Source: a virus (Duplodnaviria; Caudoviricetes). From it: a stretch of 52,221 nucleotides of DNA. The notes below the pieces were generated by a model. That model had not been told where the DNA came from. It saw nothing but the letters and a program-made list of their open reading frames with translations, and searched no databases. The stretch lies in IMG/VR virus record IMGVR_UViG_3300032116_020335, positions 1-52,221 of that record. The stretch is one strand, 5' to 3'. Shown piece after piece: positions 31,594 through 32,931 of this stretch; positions within the stretch are counted from its first letter, which is position 1, and every line of letters starts with the position of its first letter. The position numbers were made by a program, and so were the translations under genes.

Positions 31594-32931
31594 TTAATTT
31601 AAAAATTCAGGTAAATATCCAAGTTTATTTATTATTTCTTCTTTGTTATATTTAATATTAATCTTTGTTTGAGGATGAACACATTTTCCAACTTGATTTT
31701 CCCCATAAATTTGGATAATTCCATTTTTGTCTACTAAATCAAGTTCATATCTTTCACCATGTGATTTAAAGTTATCTAGTACAATCTTTTTAACTTTCCA
31801 ATCATAAAATTGATTTTCTACATCCTTTTCAATTAATGATGTTATTTCATTATCAAGTGATAAAACATCTTTTATAAAGTCTTCTTGATGATTTTTAGCT
31901 TTCAAAAAGTTTATAAACTCTTGTCTTACACTATCATCATTGTTTAAATCAATAGTTTCATCAAATTCTTTAATCTTTAAAGATTTATTGAGAATCTTTG
32001 ATTTATCAAATTTAATGGTGGCGAATTCGCCATATTTAGATTCTAAATATTTCTTAATCTTTTGTTTATTTTCAACATTAAATGTTGAATATTGGTCCAT
32101 CCAATGGATTTTAAGATAATTATGTTTTCCAACATTTTTAAGTTCAATGTTTAGATTTTCATAATCATAATCTTCATTGATATAGATATTAAAGTATTTA
32201 TAATCTGAGATTATTTCTTTCTTTTCAAAAGTTTTTGCTTCAATATCCCATAAAAGATAACCATGAAAAGCATTATCACCTTCACCATAATTGGTACAAT
32301 ATAATGATGATGGGTAAGCAAAAAACTCTTTTCCATTTTTTTGATATGATTGTTGGAGATGTATATCTCCTGCCATTACAATATCACCTTTAAAATCAGC
32401 AAGAGAAACAAGATTACTATCGGTATGGAGTTGTCCATTTTGAAGGTAGCATCCATTAATTGGGTCATGGAAAAGGTCAATATAATGCTTATTATTATTG
32501 CGCTCTTCTTCATTGAATTCAAGCCAAGGGGATTTTCTATCAGGGTGATACCAAACAGCGAAAACAATATTATCAAGTTCAAAAAAACCTGTTGAATCAT
32601 AGTAGTGTATATTAGGATTGTTAATAATCTCAACAAGCATCTTAATTGATGACATTCTGTTAAGATTTGATTTCATTATATCGTGATTACCATCAATAAT
32701 AACCACAGGTGCTATCATAGCACAAGAGTTTAAGAAATCACCTGCAAGTACATTGATTTCATTAAATGGTTTTACATAATTATGAAAAAGGTCACCTGCA
32801 ATTACAATTAAATCAGGTCTGTCCTTAATTAAGGATTTAATTGTGAGACTTGAAATATGTTTTTGTTCTGATAGTCTATCCAAATTATTTTGAAAATGGA
32901 TATCAGCAAGGTGTGCAATTTTTTTAATCAT
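31594..32931 (-). CDS. sbcD: Mre11/SbcD (gp47-like) nuclease fused to the Rad50 N-terminus (up to the Walker A lysine) and a 29-aa split-intein N-fragment
   Basis: Metallophosphoesterase motifs ADIH, AGDLFH, GNHD, FHDP and AGDIH, then KVKKIVLDNFKSHG...GIIQIYGENQVGK (Rad50 N-terminus), then CVHPQTKINI... (intein block A) and a stop. Confidence 0.92.
   Translation of the reverse strand: MIKKIAHLADIHFQNNLDRLSEQKHISSLTIKSLIKDRPDLIVIAGDLFHNYVKPFNEINVLAGDFLNSCAMIAPVVIIDGNHDIMKSNLNRMSSIKMLVEIINNPNIHYYDSTGFFELDNIVFAVWYHPDRKSPWLEFNEEERNNNKHYIDLFHDPINGCYLQNGQLHTDSNLVSLADFKGDIVMAGDIHLQQSYQKNGKEFFAYPSSLYCTNYGEGDNAFHGYLLWDIEAKTFEKKEIISDYKYFNIYINEDYDYENLNIELKNVGKHNYLKIHWMDQYSTFNVENKQKIKKYLESKYGEFATIKFDKSKILNKSLKIKEFDETIDLNNDDSVRQEFINFLKAKNHQEDFIKDVLSLDNEITSLIEKDVENQFYDWKVKKIVLDNFKSHGERYELDLVDKNGIIQIYGENQVGKCVHPQTKINIKYNKEEIINKLGYLPEFLN
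31597..31683 (-). other. IntN of an atypically split intein (CVHPQTKINIKYNKEEIINKLGYLPEFLN, 29 aa)
   Basis: Cys1 (TGT at 31683-31681) directly follows the Walker A GK and matches the C....T.I block-A pattern. Confidence 0.88.

Follow-up and report, generated by a model that had tools for sequence, protein, structure and literature searches.

A natural class 1 split intein with a short N-terminal fragment and a conserved tail in a phage gene for a fused Mre11–Rad50 protein

Introduction

Split inteins with a peptide-sized N-terminal fragment (IntN) serve protein semisynthesis and labelling, and four natural ones are named in the literature cited here: AceL TerL, GOS TerL, VidaL and PolB16. Their atypical split sites are of two kinds, S1, after the second strand, in VidaL [IntN of 16 amino acids (aa)] and PolB16 (15 aa), and S2, after helix α1, in AceL TerL (25 aa) and GOS TerL (37 aa) (PMC13014065; this source, PMC10189870 and PMC11766414 are cited throughout from excerpts). 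Natural IntN lengths range from 15 to 37 aa and such fragments are already in use (PMC13014065, PMC10189870); engineered S1 constructs of Ssp DnaB/M86 and Ssp DnaX have an IntN of 11 aa (PMC13014065, PMC11766414). Here we describe a naturally split intein with an IntN of 29 residues and a C-terminal fragment (IntC) of 129 residues in a gene for a fused Mre11–Rad50 (SbcD–SbcC) protein, found on the IMG/VR virus record IMGVR_UViG_3300032116_020335. 'The window' denotes all 52,221 bases of this linear viral contig (27.5% G+C); because its CheckV completeness is only 16%, the source phage is probably large.

VidaL (PDB 6vgv/6vgw) is the closest solved relative: it is homologous to the window intein and, like it, is cysteine-dependent and split at S1 after the second strand (PMC13014065). 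Its IntN has 16 aa against 29 in the window, where the ~13 extra residues are conserved and modelled as a helix and loop. The engineered S1 inteins (Ssp DnaB S1/M86) resemble the window intein in that the IntC model superposes on their structures from residue 12 (1mi8, 6fre, 6frg; Z 15.9–16.3), but the window intein is natural, bears a tail and is only 22–23% identical to them. AceL TerL and GOS TerL also have a short IntN of similar length and come from phage genes in metagenomes, but they are cut after α1 (PMC13014065), whereas in the window α1 lies in IntC and the helix of IntN is additional. PolB16 OarG shares the natural S1-type split but is cysteine-less (Ser1/Ser+1), has an IntC of 168 aa and resides in PolB (PMC10189870). 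Phage genes of DNA metabolism broken by a split intein were described as fractured genes (Dassa et al., 2009; PMC2677866). Their layout is matched by one relative of the window intein (locus L008), with a GIY-YIG endonuclease gene between the halves, whereas the window has nine unrelated genes in that position and no endonuclease family in the open reading frames (ORFs) scanned.

The text of Dassa et al. (2009) makes no mention of Rad50, SbcC or gp46, that of a paper on the Mre11/Rad50 fusion (PMC3175470) makes no mention of 'intein', and PMC7412058 concerns terminase inteins. None of the full-text literature matches listed (titles and beginnings of abstracts) reports an intein in SbcC/Rad50, although papers on VidaL and their supplements may list relatives. 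We consider the window to encode a class 1 intein with a natural, atypical split of the S1 type, which interrupts a phage gene for fused Mre11–Rad50 at the Walker A loop (GK|S) and bears a tail that most likely adds binding surface (probability about 0.75). This reading is built on the anatomy, conservation, homology and predicted fold of the two halves, from which we infer their binding, their splicing and the role of the tail.

Results

Anatomy of the split gene

The fused protein is encoded by two separate genes, each consisting of an extein half and an intein half, and the two exteins together match the contiguous proteins of the uncultured phage LR756501.1 and of Tenacibaculum phage PTm1. 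The parts are as follows.

31684..32931, minus strand: N-extein, 416 aa; calcineurin-like phosphoesterase (SbcD/Mre11-like), linker and N-terminal strand of SbcC/Rad50 with the first half of Walker A
31597..31683, minus strand: IntN, 29 aa; translation CVHPQTKINIKYNKEEIINKLGYLPEFLN, then stop
within 31597..31683, minus strand: IntN residues 1–12, CVHPQTKINIKY; first HINT strands
within 31597..31683, minus strand: IntN residues 13–29, NKEEIINKLGYLPEFLN; conserved accessory tail
31594..31596, minus strand: stop codon of the IntN-bearing gene
25453..25839, minus strand: IntC, 129 aa, MTEKQIKIENL...GEYYANNIAVHN; HINT strand 3 and helix α1
23269..25452, minus strand: C-extein, 727 aa and stop; begins with Ser+1 (SNILNSITYGLYG), followed by coiled coil, Walker B and signature region

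The N-terminal ORF (31594–32931) encodes 445 aa and carries IntN at its C-terminus, which agrees with an earlier note on this DNA that had placed a very short IntN at 31597–31683. Its N-extein matches Pfam Metallophos (E 1.2e-11), and residues 1–416 match positions 6–481 of phrog_35725, a 1376-position profile of fused SbcD–SbcC proteins. The N-extein ends in GENQVGK, the first half of Walker A, and the Cys of IntN follows directly (GENQVGK|C). IntC starts with the ATG at 25839 and ends in IAVHN|S at 25453, the +1 residue being Ser, as the same note had it. The IntC-bearing ORF (23269–25839) runs through ...DLVDIQVEGIGEYYANNIAVHN into SNILNSITYGLYG... of an SbcC/Rad50-like ATPase, whose C-extein matches phrog_77 (SbcC-like, E 6.8e-28), positions 1026–1356 of phrog_35725 and, below the family cut-off, Pfam SbcC_Walker_B (E 1.1e-4). 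The predicted spliced product has 1143 aa. In the uninterrupted homologue of LR756501.1 (1202 aa) the junction reads GENQQGK-TTIIDAICFILYG, compared with GENQVGK...SNILNSITYGLYG in the window, and N-extein residues 1–418 align to this protein at 37.8% identity; the contiguous homologue of phage PTm1 has 1318 aa.

Catalytic residues and fold

Among the 28 distinct IntN pieces from viral contigs that were aligned, Cys1 and T6 are invariant (28/28), and in IntC the residues H63, D111, H128 and N129 are invariant in all 49 relatives. They belong to block B (S60-K-D-H63, with position 60 being Ser in 33 and Ala in 16 of the 49), block F (Asp, D111) and block G (H128–N129). The +1 residue is Ser in 33 relatives, as in the window, and Thr in 16. 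Position 118, the site of the block F His, is His in 24 of the 49, Lys in 14 and Gly in six, and Gly is confined to the window and its five closest relatives; GEYYAN does stand where a His is usual, as had been remarked earlier. Missing though it is from the window, this His does not define membership of class 1, the features of which are otherwise present (N-terminal Cys, block B, block F Asp, block G and a predicted HINT fold).

Pfam fails to recognize IntC, neither Intein_splicing (E 0.061) nor Hint (E 0.26) coming anywhere near its cut-off, and tblastn with IntC against 50,697 phage records found no match at E ≤ 1e-3. With phmmer against the PDB, the window IntC matched the gp41-1 intein (6qaz, E 1.9e-4) over residues 27–129; VidaL was not among the matches of this search with IntC alone and was reached with the family profile and with the sequence of a relative. 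The family profile matched VidaL (E 2.1e-14, chain 23–143), gp41-1 (E 2.8e-15) and, weakly, PolB16 OarG (8cpn, E 0.001).

The window IntC was modelled alone with AlphaFold2 (AF2), using the alignment of the 49 relatives as input, with a predicted local distance difference test score (pLDDT) of 87.1 and a predicted template-modelling score (pTM) of 0.79. This predicted structure aligns to solved inteins (VIA-align) with Z of 12–16 and a root-mean-square deviation (rmsd) of 1.4–2.5 Å over 110–129 residues. The correspondence of the junction to the uninterrupted homologue, the invariance of the catalytic residues and the predicted binding of the two halves (see below) go far beyond what chance would give. 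We regard as confirmed that a class 1 intein with a natural split is present in this fused Mre11–Rad50 gene; it is very probably active.

Position of the cut

The structural alignments place the beginning of IntC close to residue 12 of the solved inteins. The matches to the IntC model include the following.

1mi8, Ssp DnaB: Z 16.2, rmsd 1.4 Å, 118 residues, chain 12–156
6fre, Ssp DnaB M86 mutant: Z 16.3
4o1r, Npu DnaB: Z 15.4
4kl5, Npu DnaE: Z 14.0, starting at chain residue 11
6qaz, gp41-1: Z 14.4, starting at chain residue 11
6vgv, VidaL: Z 15.3, chain 20–144

Residue 1–2 of the IntC model superposes on chain residue 11–12 of Ssp DnaB, Npu DnaB, Npu DnaE, gp41-1 and Mtu RecA, and the match of the family profile to VidaL begins at VidaL chain residue 23 and IntC residue 2. 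In the models, helix α1 comprises IntC residues 8–17 and thus belongs to IntC, not to IntN. As modelled, IntC is a HINT domain complete but for its first ~11 residues, with the cut at the S1 position. Because the model aligns to solved inteins from their residue 11–12, IntN would need to supply only ~11 core residues, and because it superposes on the Ssp DnaB structures from residue 12, the natural cut coincides with the engineered S1 cut. In the topology of its core the window intein is of the S1 type, a helix being added, and the total length of its IntN lies within the S2 range.

This outcome is much what the earlier note had expected when it placed the natural break near the engineered S1 site, assigned only ~11–12 residues of IntN to the canonical fold and took KQIKIENL of IntC for the strand that normally follows block A. 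The alignment to contiguous mini-inteins that it had proposed gives the match to 1mi8 from residue 12 (Z 16.2), and the predicted complex (see below) pairs IntC residues 5–8 with T6–I10 of IntN.

The IntN tail

In sequence, the remaining 17 residues of IntN (EEIINKLGYLPEFLN) are conserved no less than the catalytic strand. Across the 28 distinct IntN relatives, four positions of the tail never vary (I17, G22, P25 and L28) and two hardly do (K20, kept in 27/28, and L21, in 26/28), against two invariant positions, C1 and T6, in the catalytic strand. All four homologues of the N-protein and the five related viral contigs end in a 29-residue IntN of the form ...LGYLP(E/D)FL(K/N/R). The suggestion that the tail might be dispensable is not borne out by these conserved positions, nor by the length of IntN, which is 26–36 aa in all 52 examples from split loci, nor by the contiguous relatives that keep the tail.

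In one of these contiguous relatives, the 151-aa intein of locus L050, ...LGFLPDELN is directly joined to EEITIGELN..., that is, IntN is fused to IntC. Its AF2 model (pLDDT 93.7, pTM 0.87; numbering of a construct with six extein residues) has strands 8–9 and 13–17, a tail helix 20–27 and an ordered loop 28–36, followed by strand 37–39 and helix 40–50, the counterparts of the beginning of IntC, with a pLDDT of 96–98 for this block. VidaL is the top Foldseek match of the model (E 1.8e-11, TM-score 0.78/0.87, 25% identity), and L050 residue 36, the first after the tail, aligns to VidaL chain residue 24. The tail has no counterpart in VidaL or in the tail-less contiguous relatives. According to the model, it is an insertion relative to the canonical fold, folded as a helix and a loop, and does not provide core strands missing from IntC; a tail that did provide them is what the earlier note would have taken to refute its proposal.

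Predicted complex of the two halves

The complex was predicted from the last 68 residues of the N-protein and IntC with 11 extein residues. The interface score ipSAE was 0.79 (0.78–0.80 in three runs), compared with 0.00 for the best of three controls; the score passes the mark used with this tool, which is attained by 116 of 157 solved complexes and by two of 215 mismatched pairs. The partner pLDDT was at least 57 (57–59) and the agreement of contacts between runs at least 59%. The score may partly reflect the likeness of the two halves to solved split inteins, and it speaks of likeness rather than of measured binding.

The pairs with the lowest predicted error join IntN T6–I10 to IntC residues 5–8 (QIKI) and 23–26 (IEVE). 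The tail residues E16, I17, K20, L21, P25, F27 and L28 lie within the confident predicted interface, as do F13, L14 and L17 of the IntC helix; which residue would meet which we infer from a prediction without coordinates. Because residues of the tail fall in this interface, a role of the tail in tuning affinity is plausible and is our best guess.

Split and contiguous relatives

An exhaustive HMMER search of the protein library with IntC (E ≤ 0.001) returned 57 proteins, of which 55 are genuine. Two long repetitive proteins, P0006 (E 1.9e-13) and P0059 (9e-4), were rejected as composition artefacts that are not inteins (zero or seven short stretches). The genuine matches comprise 44 proteins that begin with IntC, mostly followed by 500–720 residues of SbcC, and 11 contiguous proteins. 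By eye, three of the 11 have a tail of the LGFLP type (P0007, P0019, P0031), four have a short canonical loop (P0026, P0043, P0045, P0058) and four carry other inserts, those of P0042 and P0054 resembling the second tail type described below.

At the level of viral loci, 59 of 78 are split with IntC first, seven are contiguous (L009, L010, L021, L047, L048, L050 and L051) and 12 are other or unclear. The last group includes two split loci with an IntN of 21 aa (L046 and L049), one cut by the end of the contig (L058) and more distant inteins in other ORFs (L066–68 and L075–80). Of the 59 split loci, 52 have an upstream ORF with IntN, counting 11 loci recovered by a looser pattern after a stricter filter had missed them. 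Six of the remaining seven hold less than 1.4 kb of upstream DNA, and the seventh (L042) has an uncertain candidate of 56 aa with Ser1. The 52 IntN are 26–36 aa long, exactly 29 aa in 34 of them, and none is as short as the 16 aa of VidaL. Two tail types can be distinguished: LG(F/Y)(L/I)P, in 31 of the 52, on proteins of ~200 or ~440 aa, and acidic-Lys-Phe-x-x-Phe-Leu-Lys, in the other 21, on N-proteins of ~70–90 aa from stand-alone SbcC genes.

In a maximum-likelihood tree of 64 IntC-equivalent regions (126 columns; many forks unresolved and bootstrap values unsettled), the window and five other split forms make up a clade with full support. The contiguous, tail-bearing inteins of L047 and L050 are nested in a supported clade of 16 split forms, L047 being the sister of split L040 (99/89), whose halves are 27 nucleotides (nt) apart. 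Because these contiguous forms are nested among split ones, the sequences indicate that split inteins and contiguous ones have changed into one another. Re-fusion in frame directly behind the tail is tolerated, which fits a tail that ends beside the start of IntC. A comparison of L047 (9905–10381) and L050 (9896–10384) with L040 (9326–10399) shows that they differ essentially by the loss of the stop codon, the 27-nt spacer and the start codon, and L047 and L050 could serve as natural 're-fused' controls in studies of splicing.

The spacer and the neighbouring genes

In the window the two halves are separated by the following region.

25840..31593: spacer between the halves, 5754 nt, nine ORFs

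The spacer ORFs encode proteins of 191 and 361 aa, a family 2 glycosyltransferase (GT2), a 262-aa protein, a 101-aa baseplate-wedge-like protein, a 64-aa protein, a KTSC protein, a BCS1-like AAA ATPase and an FkbM methyltransferase (Pfam, PHROGs). No homing-endonuclease family was found in the eight of nine ORFs scanned (Pfam, E ≤ 0.01; PHROGs, E ≤ 0.001), the 64-aa ORF being excluded. Synteny with the five related contigs extends to seven of the nine genes, the AAA gene being absent from L004. The IntC of these contigs are 62–93% identical to that of the window, open and intact.

Among the relatives, spacers fall into classes of 27–271 nt, ~0.9–1.6 kb and 4.0–5.1 kb, the clade of the window having long ones. 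The 0.9-kb spacer of L008 encodes a GIY-YIG/NUMOD3 endonuclease (GIY-YIG, E 1.2e-10); most spacer genes of the relatives have no Pfam family above cut-off. In many relatives an ORF of ~336–342 aa that begins with MGK or MGN lies between the intein halves and, by its position, is a candidate free-standing homing endonuclease:

L041:8975-9982
L043:8989-9999
L045:8921-9931
L055:8998-10005
L056:8572-9588
L059:8472-9497
L070:8793-9806

The three of these that were scanned (L041, L055 and L056) had no Pfam family above cut-off, with a weak HTH_7 match in L056.

Downstream, the IntN-bearing gene is adjoined by the gene for the FkbM-type methyltransferase (30983–31591, minus strand; Pfam Methyltransf_21, E 2.6e-19). 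It occupies this position only in the window; the five related contigs lack it there, and L007 has a copy of 34% identity elsewhere. Beyond the gene for the N-terminal half, a run of ORFs on the same strand (32928–41683, minus strand) begins with a family 8 glycosyltransferase, and its remaining ORFs are, by eye, glycosyl- or methyltransferase-like, a block of sugar modification unusually large for a phage.

A second, putative split intein with a short IntN was noticed in a different P-loop gene, in which ORFs of ~232 aa end in ...GE(P/Q)N(I/V)GK|C... followed by an IntN of 32–34 aa:

L032:3822-4517
L033:3822-4517
L036:3787-4488
L039:6097-6801
L073:15-710
L074:3916-4611

These IntN contain an I-x-(I/V)-x-x-F...L segment, and their cut is a candidate for the S2 type, like that of AceL TerL.

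Discussion

In the mechanism that we propose, two polypeptides produced from genes 5.7 kb apart would associate when the first ~11 residues of IntN enter a groove of the 129-residue IntC, complete in all other respects, and form a strand there between its first strand (QIKI) and the IEVE strand, adjoining blocks B, F and G. The other 17 residues would fold into a short amphipathic helix, followed by an ordered Gly-aromatic-Leu-Pro loop packed on IntC; most likely they would add binding surface, so that a very small core strand could associate efficiently. Splicing would then proceed through an acyl shift at Cys1, transesterification to Ser+1 and cyclization of Asn129, giving the 1143-residue enzyme with its P-loop restored. 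A further, more tentative proposal, to which we would give somewhat less than even odds, is that the helix–loop tail evolved as a docking module that makes the S1 cut viable, offsetting the minimal interface of an 11-residue strand and so allowing the halves to be encoded kilobases apart. Since the end of such a tail would adjoin the start of IntC, the halves should be re-fusable in frame, as L047 and L050 suggest.

The tail could conversely be a dispensable leftover, such as what was left of a loop or linker when the gene was fractured, in which case an IntN of 11–16 residues would do equally well. Its being an insertion relative to the canonical fold speaks for this, as do the contiguous relatives that do without it (L021, P0026, P0043, P0045 and P0058), the 16-aa IntN of homologous VidaL (PMC13014065) and the model of IntC alone as an almost complete HINT domain. 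We nevertheless find it unlikely, given four invariant and two near-invariant positions in 28 sequences, a constraint at least equal to that on strand 1. In addition, the 52 IntN in split loci are never shorter than 26 aa (two further loci have one of 21 aa), the tail persists in contiguous relatives, its model in L050 is ordered and of high confidence, and its residues lie within the predicted interface. It is also conceivable that the split is really S2, as in AceL TerL, with EEIINKL...EFL of IntN being the third strand and α1 and with KQIKIENLRFLKDLL of IntC being the extra element: both segments have an I-x-I-x-x-L-like pattern and contain LPE, and the first 29 residues of gp41-1 give a passable ungapped alignment to IntN by eye. 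This assignment is hardly tenable, however, in view of the tail-less contiguous relatives, which keep the IntC-like segment and not the tail. The alignments to VidaL and to the family profile begin at IntC residue 2, IntC residue 1 superposes on residue 11–12 of many solved inteins, IntC residues 5–8 pair with IntN strand 1 in the predicted complex, and AF2 puts the tail helix of L050 ahead of strand 37–39 and helix 40–50. An origin of the tail as a duplicate of the first strand and helix of IntC was weighed by eye and not adopted.

A different possibility concerns function: the halves might no longer splice, and the intein fragments would then hold together a non-covalent Mre11–Rad50 complex, or the gene would simply be broken. 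Splicing is a prediction here, the clade of the window has Gly where 24 of the 49 relatives have the block F His, and the 5.7 kb that separate the halves contain genes in the opposite orientation. Against this, the window retains every nucleophile and every catalytic residue of blocks B, F and G, none of which varies within the family, and an unspliced insert in the Walker A loop should, from the known role of GK[ST], block the binding of ATP. The arrangement is moreover kept in five related contigs, in which IntC has diverged to 62–93% identity yet is open and intact, and loss of splicing appears highly improbable to us.

Several points weigh against the preferred reading of an S1-split intein with a tail that adds binding surface. 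The partner pLDDT in the predicted complex is only 57–59, and the IntC residues touched by the tail are deduced from a prediction that lacks coordinates. The structure of the tail comes from the model of the relative L050, whose 35-residue IntN region is 60% identical to that of the window, and VidaL, with a homologous core, functions with a 16-residue IntN that has no such tail (PMC13014065). Conservation of the tail could reflect some other role, in folding, solubility or the control of premature cleavage. The block F His present in 24 of 49 relatives is missing from the clade of the window.

The mechanism of splicing is already established, and the window provides a further naturally, atypically split intein. 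The idea of the earlier note that its IntN could become a protein-labelling tool is reasonable, but such a tool would not be new in kind, natural IntN of 15–37 aa being already used in this way (PMC13014065, PMC10189870). What the locus adds is a natural family of large size: dozens of pairs that have diverged, with either Ser or Thr at +1, with tails of two types, and with split and contiguous versions that are close relatives. Because its members differ in these respects, the family lends itself directly to comparisons of how a very short fragment gains affinity, and it raises the question whether a conserved helix–loop is the affinity device that enables so small a core fragment. If the tail is indeed a docking module, it could be transplanted, together with the matching surface of IntC, to engineered S1 inteins to raise their affinity. 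For the biology of these phages, the family is a case in which an essential enzyme of recombination and repair has stayed divided into two widely separated pieces while its lineage diverged.

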